Shown here piece after piece: positions 1,952-63,807 of a stretch of DNA of 64,000 nt. Within the stretch, counting starts at the first letter, position 1, and each line of letters starts with the position of its first letter. Source of the DNA: Candidatus Hadarchaeota archaeon (GTDB taxonomy: Archaea > Hadarchaeota > Hadarchaeia > Hadarchaeales > Hadarchaeaceae); the NCBI GenBank assembly GCA_964514965.1, contig CAZETV010000001.1, forward strand, positions 889,239 through 953,238. The letters run 5' to 3'. The notes under the pieces are model-generated. The model made no database searches, was not told where the DNA came from, and saw nothing but the letters and a program-made list of their open reading frames with translations. The position numbers and the translations under genes are program-made.

Positions 1952-2350
1952 TTAAGACTTTATTAAGCGTCCTTTGAATCCGTAATAAATGACACCGTCT
2001 TGGCTCTCCTCGCCCATCCGCCTGAAGACTATTTCAACCTCATCGCCCATCTTGATCTCATCTATGTTGCAGTCGGTGATCTGCGCAGTCAAGCGTGGCC
2101 CATCTTCGAGTTCGATGATTGCGAGCACGTAGGGCACTTGATCTTCAAAACCTTCTGCAGCAACGTGTATCACCGTGTAAGAGAGAACCTTGCCTTGGCG
2201 TTTGAGCCGGTAAGGTTCGAGCTTACCCATCCTCCTGCAGAAGGGGCAGATTGAGCGGGGCGGAAATAAGATTTTGTTGCAATTTCCGCAGCGTGCCCCT
2301 ATGAGGTTATATCGGTTTGGTATCTCTCTCCAGAAACGCGGAACGGCCAT
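1952..2350 (-). CDS. DUF35 OB-fold/zinc-ribbon protein, partner of archaeal thiolase and HMG-CoA synthase
   Basis: CxxC...CxxC zinc ribbon (CGNCNK...CPFC) followed by OB-fold-like region; start set to ATG at 2350 (MAVPRFW), 2 nt after the thiolase stop, rather than the longer ORF-track start at 2407. Confidence 0.7.
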   Translation of the reverse strand: MAVPRFWREIPNRYNLIGARCGNCNKILFPPRSICPFCRRMGKLEPYRLKRQGKVLSYTVIHVAAEGFEDQVPYVLAIIELEDGPRLTAQITDCNIDEIKMGDEVEIVFRRMGEESQDGVIYYGFKGRLIKS

Positions 2351-2351
2351 A

Positions 2352-3515
2352 TTAGTCACCTCGCCTAAACACATGCACCACCGCAGTTCCTCCCGAGCCA
2401 CCGACATTGTGTGCTAACCCAATCTCCGCTCCATCGACTTGGCGCTTGCCCGCCTCGCTTCTAAGCTGTTGCGTGATTTCCACGGCTTGAGCGATGCCAG
2501 TAGCGCCCACGGGGTGCCCCTTACCCTTGAGCCCGCCACTCGTGTTTACAGGGATTCGTCCACCTATCGCGGTCTCGCCCTGCTCGGTCACTTTGCCACC
2601 TTCACCTTTCTTGCAAAACCCTAGATCCTCGATTGCCATGAGTTCGGCTATTGTGAAGCAGTCGTGAACCTCTGCTAGATCGATGTTATTCGGCTTGACA
2701 CCAGCCATTTTGTACGCTGTTCGTGCAGCTTCAATGGCAGCTTGTAGACTCGTGAGAGATGTACGGCTGTGGAGCGAGATAGTATCACTCGCTTGGCCGG
2801 TACCAACTACCAAGATTGGGGTATCTGTGAGTTTTCGCGCCTTCTCCGCGGAGGCGAGGATTACGCAGGCAGCGCCGTCGGTAATCGGGGAGCAATCGAG
2901 CAATTTCAGGGGCAGGGTAACGGGTGGAGACTTCATCACGTCATCGACTGTTACCTCCATCTGATATTGCGCGCAGGTGTTGAAACACGCGTTGTGGTGA
3001 TTTTTTACAGCCACTGCCGCCATTTGTTCTTCTGTGGTTCCAAATTCGTACATGTGGCGGCGAGCCATCAGCGCATAGAGACCTGGGAAGGTGGCACCTA
3101 CGAATACCTCCCATTCTTGGTCAGCTGCTGTCGCAAGTGCTCCGGTGGCTGCCCCTGTGAGAACATCAGTCATTTTCTCTATGCCAGCCGCGACGACGAT
3201 ATCGTGGAGGCCCGAGCCAACGTCGATTACCGCTTGGCGGAGTGCAAGTCCGCCTGACGCGCAGGCTCCCTCGACGCGCGTGGATGGGAGGGGTACAAGT
3301 CCAGCGTGGTCTGCGACAATTGAGGAAATATGTTCTTGGCGGATGAACTGACCAGAGGACATGTTTCCCACGTAAATCGCGCCTATCTGTTTTCCGTCGA
3401 TTCCAGCATCCTCAATCGCACGAGCACCTGCTTCCATCATCATCTCTCTAAAAGAGACATCCCAGAGTTCGCCGAACTTCGTCAGTCCAACGCCTATTAC
3501 TGCAACATCGCGCAT
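2352..3515 (-). CDS. Acetyl-CoA C-acetyltransferase (archaeal thiolase)
   Basis: 387 aa thiolase-fold protein with active-site Cys context (EGACASGG) and C-terminal thiolase motifs (HNVGGSG). Confidence 0.85.
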
Positions 3516-4571
3516 CTACTTCACCAGCAGTCTCCTGAATTTTGCGTAGGTGGCGTAGTCGATGTAAACCTTCCGATTCGAATAGTCGAGCACCTTGGGG
3601 GACGCATCACGTTTATCCTCAATACCGTCGCTCACGAGGATGCTGAAGGCATCGCTTCCTGCACCCGATCCATACGAAACAGCGAGTATCCGCTCCTTGG
3701 GCTTGGCTTGGTCGAGGACAGCGGCTAGGCCTATCATGGTTGATCCCGAGTAGGTGTTGCCTATTATAGGTGTCAGCAAGCCCGGTTTTACTTGCTCCCT
3801 CGAGAATCCCAAATCCGTGGCAGCATGCAAGGGGAATTTTCCATTTGGCTGGTGGAAAACTGCGTAGGCGAAATCTTTGGGAGTGAGCTGAAGTTGTCGG
3901 AGCAGACCGTTAGCCGCGGAGAGCACGTGTTTATAGTAAGCGGGCTTTCCAGTGAACCGCCCTCCGTGTTTGGGGTAAGGTCGCATATCCCGACGCCAGA
4001 AGTCGGGCGTATCAGTGGTGTAGGAGTAGGTACCTTCGATCTTTGCTATGGTCTTGCTTCCGTTCTTGCCCACAATGAAGGCGCCCCCTCCAGCTGCAGC
4101 GGTGTACTCGAGGCTATCTCCAGGGGCCCCTTGAGCTGTATCAGACCCGATTGCCATACCATATTTTATCATGCCAGCTTCAACTGCCCCCATACAGGTC
4201 TGAATCCCGGCTGTGCCCGCTTTGCACGCGAATTCGTAGTCGGCGGCTGTGAGGTCTGGGGTTGCTTCTATAGCTTCTGCTACAATCGTGGCCGTTGGTT
4301 TAACTGCGTAAGGATGGGACTCTGAGCCGATGTAGATTGCGCCTATATCTTGAGGGTCAATGTCCGCCTGCTTCACGGCGTTGCGCGCGGCTTCGACTGC
4401 TATGGTGGCGGTATCTTCATCAGGTCCAGGGACGGATTTTTCCCCGACCAAAAGCCCATGCTTAACGCGCTCGGGATTTTCCCCCCAGACTTTTGCTATC
4501 TCTTCTACCCGTATACGGTACCTAGGAATGTAAACGCCGTAACCGACTATGCCAACGTCCATTAGCGTCAC
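3516..4571 (-). CDS. Hydroxymethylglutaryl-CoA synthase (archaeal)
   Basis: 351 aa; N-terminus [17 protein letters not shown] and catalytic Cys context (EFACKAGT) typical of archaeal HMGCS; translationally coupled to thiolase and DUF35 genes. Confidence 0.85.
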
Positions 4572-10730: not shown

Positions 10731-11669
10731 TCACTGTTGTGACAAGGAGAGAATCTGCATACGTGTATCGGAAAGTTTTCGCGCGATGAGTTCCGCTACC
10801 TTCATCATCACCAGATATCCTCGATGGTGATTTTTTTTGAAGATTTTATCTACCAATTCATCAGCGACAATAGTAACAACTTTTGCCTTGTCCAAACAGC
10901 GCGCGTGAGTAGTGAACTTGCGAGTGCGAAGTAGAGAGGGATAGCCAAAAAGCCTACCTTTGGTCATCGTATAGACGGAAATTCTCTTTCCAGGGTAAAT
11001 TTCTATTTCGATGGAAACCCTTCCTTCCAGGGACATGTATATTTTTTCTGCTTTGTCCCCCTCTTTGAAAATCAAGTCCCCCTGTTCGAACTCCTCGACT
11101 TTTGCCAGTTTGGCAATGTCTTTCAGTTCTTCCAATGTTAAAAACTCAAAAATATCCATTTCCTTCAAAATTTCCGGTTTCACTGCCATCTTACCCTCTT
11201 CTTGATTGTTTATTTCTTTTAAAACTTTTTCGGCTAGAGTAGGCAATTTTTTTTCGATGGTTTTGCTCAATCTGTCGCCCCATGAAACTTTCTTTGGTTG
11301 TATGCCGACAATTCTCACATTTTTAAAATCGTAACCAATTTTCTTCCCCACCTTGATGACATCGATTAAATCAATTTCATGTAGTGAAAATTTCTCGCTG
11401 CTTGGCATGGCGAGGATCTGCTCGGCGTCAAAGCTAGCAATATAGCCTGGTTCTTTTCCCATATCCGCGGCGTCTACTAGCACTACCTTTTCAAAGCCCT
11501 TCATCTCTTCCAGAAACTCGAATCCAAAAATAGCCCCATCTACAAGTTTTATCTTATTATCTAGGACTCTGCTCTTCAAGTACTCCACACATCTTATGCC
11601 CACACCTTCATCTTTCAGTAGGATATTTCCTAGGCCGACGATGAGTTTGCGCTCATTCAACGAAATCAA
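10731..11669 (-). CDS. Hydrogenase maturation endopeptidase (HycI/HybD family) fused to a C-terminal cyclic-nucleotide-binding (CAP-like) domain
   Basis: N-terminal 155 aa carry protease motifs (LIVGLGNILLKDEGVGI, VVLVDAADMG, SLHEIDL); C-terminal 150 aa carry a cNMP-binding beta-roll signature (FKEGDKAEKIYMSLEGRVSIE...KGRLFGYPSLL). Single uninterrupted ORF directly downstream of the hydrogenase large subunit. Confidence 0.7.
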   Translation of the reverse strand: MISLNERKLIVGLGNILLKDEGVGIRCVEYLKSRVLDNKIKLVDGAIFGFEFLEEMKGFEKVVLVDAADMGKEPGYIASFDAEQILAMPSSEKFSLHEIDLIDVIKVGKKIGYDFKNVRIVGIQPKKVSWGDRLSKTIEKKLPTLAEKVLKEINNQEEGKMAVKPEILKEMDIFEFLTLEELKDIAKLAKVEEFEQGDLIFKEGDKAEKIYMSLEGRVSIEIEIYPGKRISVYTMTKGRLFGYPSLLRTRKFTTHARCLDKAKVVTIVADELVDKIFKKNHHRGYLVMMKVAELIARKLSDTRMQILSLSQQ

Positions 11670-15847: not shown

Positions 15848-16114
15848 TTATCCCATCTTGTAGACGAGATCACCTTCACGCACGCGCTCTTGGACTCTCA
15901 ACCCAATTGATTGCCCCGCGCCAGCGCTCTGCACTTTTTCGTGCTCAATCTGTATTGAATCCACCGTCTGTTGGATATTGGTCGTCGCGCCTTCAATCGA
16001 TATTTTATCGCCTACTTTGACCTCGTCACTTAGGTCCACGACTCCAACCCCTATCTTTGTAAAGTAGTGGGATATTTTACCCACGAGTTTCTTCTCAACG
16101 GGTGCTTCTTCCAT
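15848..16114 (-). CDS. Hypothetical small protein (88 aa)
   Basis: ORF between the cbiO end and the hydrogenase operon; no diagnostic motif recognised. Confidence 0.35.
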   Translation of the reverse strand: MEEAPVEKKLVGKISHYFTKIGVGVVDLSDEVKVGDKISIEGATTNIQQTVDSIQIEHEKVQSAGAGQSIGLRVQERVREGDLVYKMG

Positions 16115-16202: not shown

Positions 16203-16877
16203 TCATTTGAAAATCTCACTTTTTTTGCCAATTTCCTTTACGATTTTTCCATCATTGATCAGATAAGTTCGGTTACATATTTTCATTAAATCTAAATCAT
16301 GTCCTGCCACTACCATCGTGTGGTGTTTTTTAAGTTCTTTTAAAAGTTTCATAAACTCTTTTTTTATCCAAGGGTCGAGAGCCAATGTTGGCTCATCAAG
16401 AACCAAAATCTCAGGCTTCATGGAGAGTACGGTTGCTATTGCGACTCTTTTCTTTTCCCCGTAGCTTAAGTGATGCGAGCTTCGGTTTTCTAACCTTTCA
16501 AGACCCACAGCTTTTAGTGCTTTTCTAACTCTCCTTTTTACTTCCCATTCACTGAGCCCCATATTTACTGGCCCAAACGCGACATCTTCGAAAACCGTCG
16601 GCATGAACATTTGGTCATCTGGATTTTGGAACACAAGCCCCACTTTGCTTCTGACTTCCCTTGTTTTTTTGCGTAAATCCATCCCGATAACGCGTACACG
16701 ACCTCTTTGTGGCTGTAGGATGCCGTTTAAGTGAAGAAGAAGAGTAGATTTTCCTGAGCCGTTGGGGCCTATTAAGCATATGCTCTCCTCTCTTTCGATA
16801 TCTAGGTTAATGCCATGTAACGCTTTCGTACCATCAGGATAGGTGTAGTGCAGATTTTTTATTTCAATAGCTTTCAT
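16203..16877 (-). CDS. cbiO: ECF/CbiO-type ABC transporter ATPase (cobalt/nickel)
   Basis: Walker A (GPNGSGKST), ABC signature (LSYGEKKR) and Walker B (LVLDEP). Confidence 0.8.
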   Translation of the reverse strand: MKAIEIKNLHYTYPDGTKALHGINLDIEREESICLIGPNGSGKSTLLLHLNGILQPQRGRVRVIGMDLRKKTREVRSKVGLVFQNPDDQMFMPTVFEDVAFGPVNMGLSEWEVKRRVRKALKAVGLERLENRSSHHLSYGEKKRVAIATVLSMKPEILVLDEPTLALDPWIKKEFMKLLKELKKHHTMVVAGHDLDLMKICNRTYLINDGKIVKEIGKKSEIFK

Positions 16878-17674
16878 ACCACCACTAATATTAGTATTAG
16901 AAGTAAGAAAAAGCTAGAGAAGAAGAAGGTATCCGATCTCTTGAATTCAAGTTTGTGTGTTAGCTTAATTTCCCCATTGAACCCTCTGGATCGCATTGCA
17001 GTATAAATGCGCTCTCCTCTTTCATAGCTTTTTGCGAACAATGTTCCAATCATGTATCCAAAGAGTTTTACATTTTGTAATCTGCTAAGACTAGGTGCCC
17101 TTGCATCGCGTGCCCTGCGCATTCGCTCGAACTCATCTATAGCGATGAAAATAAAGCGGTACATAAAAGAGAGAATCATTACGAAGATTTTTGGCAGTTT
17201 CAGTCTTTGAAATCCGTTTAGGAGTTTCGGAAACGGGGTTGTTGAAGTAAGAGCGATCATGGCAAGCACACAAAGCCACGATTTTACAAGCACGTTGAGA
17301 AAAATCAACAGGGCTGAGTGGGTTATTCTAAAAATGCCAATATTGTATGATCCAGCTGCGTCACCACCGCCTAAGAACGGCAACCCTATAGCAACGAGCA
17401 GCACAAATGGAACTATCACCGAGGATCTCTTCAGGATAAATCTAAGCGGAACTCGTGAGATTAGGATAATCGAGAAGACTAGTGCCCCGTAAAAGGCGAA
17501 TTTCGGGGCCTGAGTTATTGGAGTGAAAATTACGAAGAAAAGGAAGGAAAAAAGCGCGATTATTTTCACTCTTGGGTCTAAAACATGTATTGAACTATGC
17601 AAATTACTATGCTGGTCTAGAAAATGATGCTTCATATGCTGTTTCAGCGTCTCCGTTTTAAGATTGTACCCCAA
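16874..17674 (-). CDS. cbiQ: Cobalt/nickel ECF transporter transmembrane component CbiQ
   Basis: Multi-TM 266 aa protein translationally coupled to cbiO and cbiN. Confidence 0.7.
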   Translation of the reverse strand: MGYNLKTETLKQHMKHHFLDQHSNLHSSIHVLDPRVKIIALFSFLFFVIFTPITQAPKFAFYGALVFSIILISRVPLRFILKRSSVIVPFVLLVAIGLPFLGGGDAAGSYNIGIFRITHSALLIFLNVLVKSWLCVLAMIALTSTTPFPKLLNGFQRLKLPKIFVMILSFMYRFIFIAIDEFERMRRARDARAPSLSRLQNVKLFGYMIGTLFAKSYERGERIYTAMRSRGFNGEIKLTHKLEFKRSDTFFFSSFFLLLILILVVV

Positions 17675-17937
17675 CCCAGAGTTATACCGATAATGATAAA
17701 CACTCCGACTAGACCCGCTAGCGATGTGGCAAGTGCTTTATTTTCAATGCCGGGGATGGCATAGTCAGGCATCGGAGAGTGCATGGCTTCTTGTCCCTCA
17801 GCTTTCTCTGCGAATCCTTGATCCTCTGCAACTCGTTCGAGACCATCTGGCTCGGAGGAGGCGAAAAGCGATAGCACACATGCCATAGAGATCGCGATGA
17901 CAAGTCCGGCGATCCACCATTTTTCTTTGAGTTTCAT
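17644..17937 (-). CDS. cbiN: Cobalt/nickel transport protein CbiN-like small membrane protein
   Basis: 97 aa with two TM helices, located between cbiM and cbiQ. Confidence 0.55.
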   Translation of the reverse strand: MKLKEKWWIAGLVIAISMACVLSLFASSEPDGLERVAEDQGFAEKAEGQEAMHSPMPDYAIPGIENKALATSLAGLVGVFIIIGITLGWGTILKRRR

Positions 17938-17945
17938 TTTTTCAC

Positions 17946-18581
17946 CTAGATTTTTGGTAGCTTCAGCAAGTCTGGCCGCGTCTTTAGGACGAAGCTAATT
18001 ACCGAAATGGTGATGGCGGCCTCGATGATGCCGATTATTACGTGGATTCCTACCATTGCCGGCAGAGCTATCCCAAGAGGCGAAGTTCCTGAAGCTGCTA
18101 ACTCAAATGCGCATGCCGCCGACGCGAGCACCACAGCGATCCAAGCAGCGACGCCAGCTCCAATAATCATGCCTCTGTCCCCTTTCACAGCTTTTTTAAC
18201 ACCCTGGTAGATGAAATAGCCAAGGATGGTGCCAATAAGCCCCATGTTGATGATGTTCGCGCCCATCGTAGTTATCCCTCCATCTTGGAAGAATATTGCT
18301 TGTACACCAAAGATTGACCCCATTACAATCGATCCAGCCAGCGGGCCGACAAAAACAGCGATGAGTACTCCGCCGAGCATATGTCCGCTGGTGCCGCCAG
18401 CTACTGGCACGTTTAACATTTGTGCTGCGAAAATGAATGCTGCTAGCACGCCTAGTAGTGGAACGTGCCTATCTCCAAGTTTTTTATTAGTCCTCCAAAC
18501 TGCGACGACCAGAATCAGCATAGCGACTACCCACAATGGTGCCCATACCGCAACGCTTAGAAATCCATCTGGTATGTGCAT
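17946..18581 (-). CDS. cbiM: Cobalt/nickel ECF transporter substrate-capture component CbiM/NikM
   Basis: Start set to ATG at 18581 giving the N-terminus MHIPDGFLS; the ORF-track start at 18680 would abut the nikR start. Confidence 0.8.
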   Translation of the reverse strand: MHIPDGFLSVAVWAPLWVVAMLILVVAVWRTNKKLGDRHVPLLGVLAAFIFAAQMLNVPVAGGTSGHMLGGVLIAVFVGPLAGSIVMGSIFGVQAIFFQDGGITTMGANIINMGLIGTILGYFIYQGVKKAVKGDRGMIIGAGVAAWIAVVLASAACAFELAASGTSPLGIALPAMVGIHVIIGIIEAAITISVISFVLKTRPDLLKLPKI

Positions 18582-18597
18582 AATGGCCCCATCTGGG

Positions 18598-18627
18598 AGT
18601 AATACTTTTTGGTATAAAAATATTACT
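18598..18627. promoter_or_regulatory. Candidate NikR operator: AGTAATA-N16-TATTACT
   Basis: Perfect 7-bp inverted repeat with 16-bp spacer, in the 97-bp divergent intergenic region between cbiM (start 18581) and nikR (start 18679); the spacer contains a TATA-like GGTATAAAAATA. Confidence 0.45.
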
Positions 18628-18678
18628 GTCATAGATAACTTGAAAAACACTTGGCAACGAAGTTTGCAGGGAGTTGGC

Positions 18679-19083
18679 ATGCCGAAAAAGATAACGCGAG
18701 TGAGCTTGACGTTGCCTCAAGATTTGTTGGATGAGCTCGATTGCTCTCTTAAAGCTCAAGGTTATACAAGTCGTTCGGAGGCGATCCGTGATGCTTTACG
18801 AGATTTTTTGGCGAGCTACAAGTGGCGCAAGGAGCTTAAGGGCGAACGTATCGGGGTCGTAATACTAGTGTACGAGCACGATGTCCGAGGGCTGATTGAC
18901 GCACTCATGGATATCCAGCACGTGAGTTCGAGTATAATAAGCGCAGTCCAGCATTTGCATGTCGACGCCAAAAACTGCTTGGAAACACTGATTGTCAAGG
19001 GCCCCTCAGAGGAGATCCGCAAGCTTGTCGATCGCTTGGGCGCCCTGCGAGGCGTCAAACAGGTCAAGCTGGTGGTTGTTTGA
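18679..19083 (+). CDS. nikR: Nickel-responsive regulator NikR
   Basis: 134 aa; N-terminal ribbon-helix-helix (KITRVSLTLPQDLLDELD...GYTSRSEAIRDALRDFL) plus C-terminal ACT-like metal-binding domain with His/Cys (EHD...HVD..C). Start taken at ATG 18679, not the 285-aa ORF-track extension. Confidence 0.8.
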   Translation: MPKKITRVSLTLPQDLLDELDCSLKAQGYTSRSEAIRDALRDFLASYKWRKELKGERIGVVILVYEHDVRGLIDALMDIQHVSSSIISAVQHLHVDAKNCLETLIVKGPSEEIRKLVDRLGALRGVKQVKLVVV

Positions 19084-63307: not shown

Positions 63308-63448
63308 CTATTTTCCGAGGAAATTTCGTATTTGCTCTCTCAACCATTCAGCCTTTGAATTATAACCAGATGCCTTCAGTTTTGCTTCAAAAGCTTCAAG
63401 AATCTCCTTTTCAATTTGGGCTTTGATTTCAATAATATCCTGCATCAT
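63308..63448 (-). CDS. Putative ribbon-helix-helix (CopG/antitoxin-like) mini-protein, 46 aa
   Basis: Translated by hand: MMQDIIEIKAQIEKEILEAFEAKLKASGYNSKAEWLREQIRNFLGK; the GYNSKAEWLREQIRNFL segment resembles the RHH helix-2 of NikR and CopG (compare GYTSRSEAIRDALRDFL in the nikR product here). Below the ORF-track length cutoff. Confidence 0.3.
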   Translation of the reverse strand: MMQDIIEIKAQIEKEILEAFEAKLKASGYNSKAEWLREQIRNFLGK

Positions 63449-63501
63449 GATCACTAACGAACAATAAGTTTATAAATATAAGAATATTCTAATATGTTAA
63501 T

Positions 63502-63807
63502 ATGAAAGAGATATATAAAATCCATGCTGAGATGTGTAAAGTTTTTTCAAATCCAACTAGATTGGAAATTCTTAATCTATTAAGAGACAATGAACTGACT
63601 GTTTCTGAATTGACTAATAAGTCAGAATTTACTCAAGTTAACATTTCTCAGCATTTGTCAATAATGAAAAATAAAGGAATAGTCTCATCAAGACGAAAAG
63701 GGAAAAACGTTTACTACAAACTTACTAATCCCAAGATAATCAAAGCATTTGATATAATTAAAGAAGTGTTGGCTGAAAGGTTGAAGAAGAATGGAACGCT
63801 TGTTTAA
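63502..63807 (+). CDS. arsR: ArsR/SmtB family transcriptional regulator
   Basis: 101 aa winged-helix regulator (FSNPTRLEILNLLRDNELTVSELTNKSEFTQVNISQHLSIMKNKGIV). Confidence 0.75.
   Translation: MKEIYKIHAEMCKVFSNPTRLEILNLLRDNELTVSELTNKSEFTQVNISQHLSIMKNKGIVSSRRKGKNVYYKLTNPKIIKAFDIIKEVLAERLKKNGTLV

Follow-up and report, generated by a model that had tools for sequence, protein, structure and literature searches.

The NikR operator of E. coli has the sequence GTATGA-N16-TCATAC (PMC7055735). The predicted NikR signals of the delta-proteobacterial nik(MN)QO genes are GTGTTAC-N13/14-GTAACAC and the reversed form GTAACAC-N13/14-GTGTTAC, and NikR signals diverge between taxa (PMC545781). PMC10617489, drawing on Rodionov et al. 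2006, gives NikR control of nikMNQO as a prediction in methanogens. The sites of H. pylori NikR (HpNikR) show a weak consensus and two tiers of affinity, and this regulator acts on many genes, both as activator and as repressor (PMC7949043).

The locus considered here lies between the divergent genes nikM (also cbiM) and nikR of a Hadarchaeota genome, within a 64-kb stretch of DNA analysed as a whole and referred to as the window. A 28-bp box in this gap (18599..18626) is put forward with good confidence as a putative NikR operator over the nikMNQO core promoter. From the sequence we infer that NikR is the protein bound, that it needs nickel to bind, where transcription starts and in which direction regulation works. 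The link between NikR and the box is most likely, on the grounds of genomic context and architecture. No literature joining NikR with the Hadesarchaea was found. The Hadarchaeota consensus and the placement of a TATA box in the spacer were likewise not found in the searchable literature, which does not extend to Rodionov et al. 2006.

The nikM-nikR locus and its palindrome

The genes on either side of the gap are as follows.

18679..19083, plus strand: nikR, nickel-responsive ribbon-helix-helix (RHH) regulator, presumed to bind the box (RHH_1 and NikR_C domains)
17946..18581, minus strand: nikM/cbiM, S component of an ECF-type nickel/cobalt transporter (Pfam CbiM, 3.6e-61)
17644..17937, minus strand: N component, CbiN/NikN-like (Pfam PDGLE, 2.9e-25; CbiN models below cut-off)
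16874..17635, minus strand: cbiQ/nikQ, T component (Pfam CbiQ, 7.9e-39)
16203..16877, minus strand: cbiO/nikO, ABC ATPase (Pfam ABC_tran, 3.7e-33)

The NikR protein matches Pfam RHH_1 (6.7e-09) and NikR_C (4.5e-27), and scores 161 bits against NCBIfam NF002169, the cut-off of which is 111. It also matches the solved NikR structures of H. pylori (the best structural match), P. horikoshii and E. coli. The His3Cys nickel ligands H81, H92, H94 and C100 show no variation among 19 homologues; in the alignment their counterparts in H. pylori NikR are H88, H99, H101 and C107. The recognition strand R7-x-S9-x-T11 is kept. In the NikR encoded next to the box, both the DNA-binding domain and the nickel ligands are intact. 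It is 95% identical to a protein of Hadesarchaea archaeon DG-33 and has hundreds of relatives.

The M, N, Q and O components of the transporter are contiguous. The start of cbiQ/nikQ is probably an internal ATG (MKHHFLDQ...), as judged by the N-termini of homologues in L018, L020 and L031. For nikM, the NCBIfam CbiM models match below their equivalog cut-offs, and the family models do not split nickel from cobalt. Nickel as the candidate metal of the transporter is suggested by context only: nikR alongside, the box, and an operon for a [NiFe] hydrogenase. This hydrogenase operon lies downstream on the same strand and encodes the beta, gamma, small and large subunits together with a HycI protease. 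A sequence-only reading of this DNA had placed such an operon beyond the transporter; its subunits are indeed there, with an 88-aa gene intervening.

The 88-aa gene (15848..16114, minus strand) encodes a stand-alone EF-Tu domain-2-like beta-barrel protein. It adjoins the nickel transporter or an smp gene (described below) in most box-bearing Hadarchaeota loci, either downstream or divergent, and in the window, L007, L010 and L012 it separates the transporter gene from the hydrogenase genes. The window copy is preceded by a TATA-like element of its own, 39 nt before the ATG, and by no NikR box. An unusual gene closes the hydrogenase operon (10731..11669, minus strand): in its product the HycI-type maturation protease is fused to a cyclic-nucleotide-binding (cNMP) domain.

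The start codon of nikM is at 18581 on the minus strand and opens the N-terminus MHIPDG, where all nikM homologues begin. The nikR ATG is at 18679, and the gap between the two genes (18582..18678) is 97 bp. Within it lies a perfect inverted repeat, AGTAATA-N16-TATTACT, at 18598..18627 (AGTAATA 18598-18604; TATTACT 18621-18627), the spacer of which holds 'TATAAAAA' at 18613-18620. The sequence-only reading had given the same repeat, coordinates, gap length and TATA-like spacer, and the sequence agrees with it on each. The symmetry runs further inward to form 12-nt arms, AGTAATACTTTT / AAAAATATTACT, with one mismatch around a 6-nt centre, the single occurrence of its kind in the 64-kb window. 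Taken alone, the palindrome barely exceeds chance: when the 97-bp region was shuffled 20000 times, 978 of the shuffles (~5%) contained at least one perfect inverted repeat of 7 nt with a spacer of 10-20 nt. It is far beyond chance because it is conserved across loci.

The part of the palindrome that is conserved is a 28-bp box with the following elements.

18599..18626: predicted NikR box (operator core), plus strand GTAATAC-TTTTTGGTATAAAA-ATATTAC, from the weight matrix and the conservation footprint
18599..18605: nikM-proximal half-site, GTAATAC (GTATTAC on the minus strand), mean information 1.68 bits/position over 30 sites
18620..18626: nikM-distal half-site, ATATTAC (GTAATAT on the minus strand), mean information 1.90 bits/position, overlapping the expected nikM BRE position
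18606..18610: T-tract beside the proximal half-site, with high information columns, a mirror of the A-tract at 18616-18620

Towards nikM the box reads GTAATAT-TTTTATACCAAAAA-GTATTAC; the 30-bp version of the earlier reading is 18598..18627. The dyad can be written as GTAATA-N16-TATTAC, which is equivalent to a 7-N14-7 layout, with 22 bp between the centres of the half-sites GTAATA / TATTAC. In the window the box lies 17 nt before nikM.

Conservation and distribution of the box

The conservation footprint was drawn from 30 distinct loci, nearly all of Hadarchaeota, with the sites oriented toward the regulated gene. The consensus of these 30 sites over the 28-bp box is GTAATATTTnTATAnnAAAAAGTATTAC. 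Information within the box is 1.57 bits/position, against 0.16 and 0.17 in the 45-nt flanks, and the spacer itself carries 1.35 bits/position. The 14-nt spacing between the 7-mers is constant in all 30 sites, and TTTnTATA is kept at box positions 7-14 in nearly all sites of the Hadarchaeota type. The centre of the arm (TAWTA) flips between A and T with no compensation opposite, as in the GTAATA...TAATAC of L004, L016, L040, L062 and L094.

A weight matrix (PWM) was built from nine sites. In a scan of the window the box scores 43 bits and the next best match 8.5 bits, so that the 64-kb window holds no second copy by this measure and nothing else above 8.5 bits. Matches to the box with three mismatches number 12 in the window, against 17.7 expected. 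The sequence-only reading had suggested that extra copies might stand before hyd or cdh genes; the same scan finds none there within the 64-kb window. The 8.5-bit match (63489-63516), which is probably due to chance, falls between a gene for a 48-aa protein (63308..63454, minus strand) and a divergent gene for an ArsR-family regulator (63502..63807, plus strand). The 48-aa protein has weak similarity to the ribbon-helix-helix N-terminus of NikR and no Pfam match.

A scan of one genome per species for nikR yielded 32 loci, nearly all from Hadarchaeota MAGs. By PWM the box is present in 19 of these 32. A nikM or smp gene is present in 18 of the 19; in the other, L004, the contig ends just past the box. 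The remaining 13 loci lack the box, and 12 of them also lack nikM and smp genes. In the thirteenth, L030, smp genes are present and the box is represented only by a divergent sequence that resembles it. There is no further match of 12 bits or more in the 32 loci, the others at this threshold in the 19 box-bearing loci being the same site on the opposite strand.

Among the box-bearing nikR-anchored loci, the box stands directly upstream of nikM/cbiM, of smpA or of smpB1/smpB2, 4-35 nt before the start codon of nikM or smp and always in the same orientation. The arrangement of nikR varies around it. The box precedes nikM with nikR divergent in the window, L001 and L032; in L018, L020 and L031 it precedes nikM with nikR ~2.5 kb downstream on the same strand. 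Orientation and position also stay fixed where another gene separates nikR, as in L024 and L028. In L003, nikR faces the 88-aa gene only and there is no box, so the box follows the transporter-type gene, and neither nikR nor the 88-aa gene. In these respects the box is specific to a regulon, being found at orthologous promoters and as a single copy in the 64-kb window.

Most of these loci were gathered through nikR itself, a bias which is lessened by sets based on the DNA pattern and on smp. A scan of metagenome contigs by DNA pattern alone returned at least 120 stretches, mostly chance matches in AT-rich contigs, and since such matches dominate there, it was used only for contigs of higher G+C. 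Among the matches listed, 21 have at least 45% G+C; nikM or smp lies directly downstream in 10 of these 21, and 7 of those 10 contigs also encode NikR. On L076, a contig of 70% G+C, the box (4168-4195) stands 24 nt before a cbiM homologue of 39% identity, with no nikR within 10 kb. Both arms and the T- and A-tracts are kept there, in a spacer with no TATA-like sequence. Its presence in L076 means that the motif reaches beyond the close relatives of this genome. On L119 (48% G+C), a box of full consensus (1102-1128) stands 6 nt before an operon running to 5205, which encodes Peripla_BP_2, a HemN-like radical SAM protein, FecCD and an ABC-ATPase. A THUMP-domain methyltransferase gene adjoins it, and no nikR is found on the fetched stretch. 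This operon may encode an importer of chelated nickel that is controlled in the same way.

The box is also present in loci that were collected solely through smpA homologues. In L153, where the locus of 5.3 kb contains no nikR, smpA lies behind the box and hypA comes after it; in L154 and L155 nikR is 1.2 kb away. A box-like GTAATAT-N14-GTAGCAC with two mismatches was also observed on a bacterial contig (L156:2396-2423), between the nikR stop codon and a gene for an OprB porin.

Promoter architecture and alternative readings

The TATA box of archaeal promoters lies at -30..-23 by the usual spacing. The promoter elements predicted in the gap are listed below.

18613..18620, minus strand: predicted nikM TATA box, TTTTTATA, within the spacer and starting 39 nt before the ATG
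18588..18592 (about 18590), minus strand: predicted nikM transcription start, placed from the TATA position, with a leader of roughly 9 nt
18640..18647, plus strand: probable TATA-like element for nikR, TTGAAAAA, lying in the conserved GAAARYTTGAAAAY and 39 nt ahead of the ATG

Relative to the predicted nikM start, the box spans about -37 to -9. Several further genes of the window have TATA-like 8-mers 32-41 nt before the ATG, a sign that leaders are short in this genome. Under the proposed mechanism, NikR carrying nickel would bind the 28-bp dyad over the nikM-N-Q-O core promoter when nickel is sufficient. The distal half-site would occupy the BRE position, with the TATA box filling the distal part of the spacer, and the proximal half-site would end ~9 nt before the predicted start site. 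The two arms would be matched to the two ribbon-helix-helix dimers at the ends of the NikR tetramer. Bound in this way, NikR would exclude TBP/TFB and RNA polymerase, thereby blocking initiation of transcription. When nickel is scarce, the nikM promoter would be free.

Repression of the transporter, as the sequence-only reading had proposed, is the natural reading because the TATA box sits within the spacer of the predicted operator. Its proposal of a NikR-type operator likewise holds up as a prediction, given the 6-N16-6 geometry, the footprint over about 30 loci and the constant position at the promoter of a gene of the nickel-transport type. Part of the conservation could nevertheless reflect promoter function, with the distal arm coinciding with a BRE-like sequence.

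The same reading had NikR regulating its own gene, and on this point the distribution of the box gives no support. Among the 32 loci, the box is absent from nikR promoters with no nikM or smp neighbour, while a separate nikR-proximal element is kept. In relatives, box-bearing or not, GAAARYTTGAAAAY keeps a fixed place 39 nt upstream of the nikR ATG. The stretch GAAARYTTGAAAAY...GGTTTGCnGGGAG (18633..18678 in the window) is conserved in position, also in L003, L005, L008, L011, L016 and L017, and is probably the promoter and leader of nikR itself. The element TTGAAAAA sits 13 nt past the box, outside the predicted operator. Taking it as the TATA of nikR would put the box at about -71..-44 of the nikR start, and autoregulation by occlusion is therefore not indicated. 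Across a distance of 13 nt a NikR tetramer could still interfere sterically, and nikR could be regulated through co-transcription where it follows smp genes behind the box (L013, L015) or comes after nikM in the same orientation (L018, L020, L031). On balance it is doubtful that NikR also controls nikR, or activates one of the two divergent promoters.

The box may instead be the operator of a regulator other than NikR, such as a metal- or redox-responsive factor encoded elsewhere. The binding of NikR to the box is a prediction, and the fetched stretches of L076, L153 and L119 carry the box with no nikR. Against this, no regulator gene apart from nikR shows a repeated link with the box, and the geometry 6-N16-6 is that of NikR operators which have been solved and characterised (PMC7055735). 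The box has genes of the nickel-uptake type as its targets, one of them followed by hypA, and a different regulator is accordingly judged improbable.

It is more improbable still that the box is a core promoter only (BRE, TATA and a proximal element), with no dedicated repressor and an incidental symmetry. On the minus strand, AGTAAT stands immediately before TTTTTATA, and the two read as BRE and TATA, the TATA part being conserved and the orientation fixed. However, GTAATA arms are missing from the other promoters of the window that have TATA-like octamers at an equal distance, and the PWM yields no second site. The proximal arm mirrors the distal arm at a strictly constant spacing of 14 nt, and in L076 both arms are present in the absence of a TATA-like spacer. 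A generic promoter was rejected on these grounds, the arms being absent elsewhere in the window and persisting in L076 where the TATA does not.

Least of all is the palindrome likely to be a transcribed RNA hairpin (leader or attenuator) or a DNA cruciform in place of a protein site: the region can form a hairpin (-9.3 to -9.8 kcal/mol, with z from -2.6 to -3.8), but the stem is weak and A/U-rich, it contains the TATA box and so is probably upstream of the nikM start site, the A/T switches at the arm centres break its pairing and suit a degenerate protein site, and a search of 18300-19000 against Rfam matched no RNA family.

The smp family and comparison with known NikR systems

The smp genes encode unannotated membrane proteins of ~100 aa and occur either as a single gene (smpA, ~105 aa) or as a paralogous pair (smpB1/B2). 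Representative copies are as follows.

L008:2574-2894, minus strand: smp gene
L013:1807-2136 and 2139-2432, plus strand: smp genes
L153:4001-4315, plus strand: smp gene
L156:4001-4288, plus strand: smp gene

No smp homologue is present in the 64-kb window. There are 184 homologues, none of them named, and no match to Pfam or NCBIfam was obtained. Three transmembrane helices are predicted (AlphaFold pLDDT 82). Comparison with PDB folds brought no meaningful match, the best E being 1.9 and the top hits three-helix subunits of complex I. Cys3, Asp44-His45 and Asp61 are invariant in the single-gene form smpA, and across the whole family His45, in a D/E-H motif, is the only invariant residue that could act as a metal ligand.

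Wherever nikMNQO does not stand directly behind the NikR box, smp does, in the same position of the locus. In L156/L157 a bacterial cluster runs nikR, OprB porin gene, smpA. What makes a role in nickel uptake plausible is that smp lies behind the predicted NikR box, is linked to hypA and occurs in this bacterial cluster. It can be suggested, tentatively and at somewhat less than even chances, that the box defines a Hadarchaeota nickel regulon of which smp, and not NikMNQO, is the commonest member, and that smp could be an unrecognised family for nickel uptake or delivery. The smp family is a by-product of the analysis, and more novel than the box itself.

As regulation, the box is what would be expected beside nikR. 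It nonetheless provides a sharp predicted recognition sequence of NikR for an uncultured archaeal phylum, and an architecture for metal-dependent repression in archaea in which the TATA box would lie between two half-sites. With it, subsurface archaea relying on [NiFe]-hydrogenase and CO dehydrogenase can be probed for genes of nickel homeostasis, and in this use it already indicates unannotated candidate genes for nickel handling.

Occlusion of the BRE/TATA region by a repressor, or the blocking of polymerase recruitment, is a general mechanism in archaea. The predicted operator resembles those of such repressors in that it overlaps the core promoter and would compete with TBP/TFB or RNA polymerase; the repressors themselves belong to protein families other than NikR. 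No demonstration of this mechanism for an archaeal NikR was found in the accessible literature.

In geometry the box equals the E. coli operator, which also has two 6-bp half-sites in a perfect dyad and a 16-bp spacer in a total of 28 bp, with an identical outer GTA...TAC. It too lies over the core promoter of a nickel importer, and its regulator, like the NikR encoded here, is a tetramer of RHH and NikR_C domains with His3Cys ligands (PMC7055735). The half-site differs at 2 of 6 positions (GTATGA in E. coli, GTAATA here), so that 8 of the 12 arm positions match. In the Hadarchaeota the setting is an archaeal BRE/TATA promoter with the TATA in the spacer and conserved T- and A-tracts beside the arms, and the target is the ECF-type NikMNQO, whereas that of E. 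coli is the peptide-type NikABCDE.

Similar to the box, the predicted delta-proteobacterial signals have a 7-N14-7 layout and stand upstream of the same transporter family. Set against their reversed form, the box agrees at 11 of 14 arm positions (PMC545781), and the central bases of the arms are different. The sites of H. pylori are alike in their AT-rich half-sites and spacer, and one target is a divergent region that includes nikR (nikR-exbB) (PMC7949043). In contrast to these, the box has a sharp consensus and is confined to uptake genes. NikR boxes before nikMNQO are already known, and what is new here is the Hadarchaeota consensus, the placement of the TATA in the spacer and the members of the predicted regulon.
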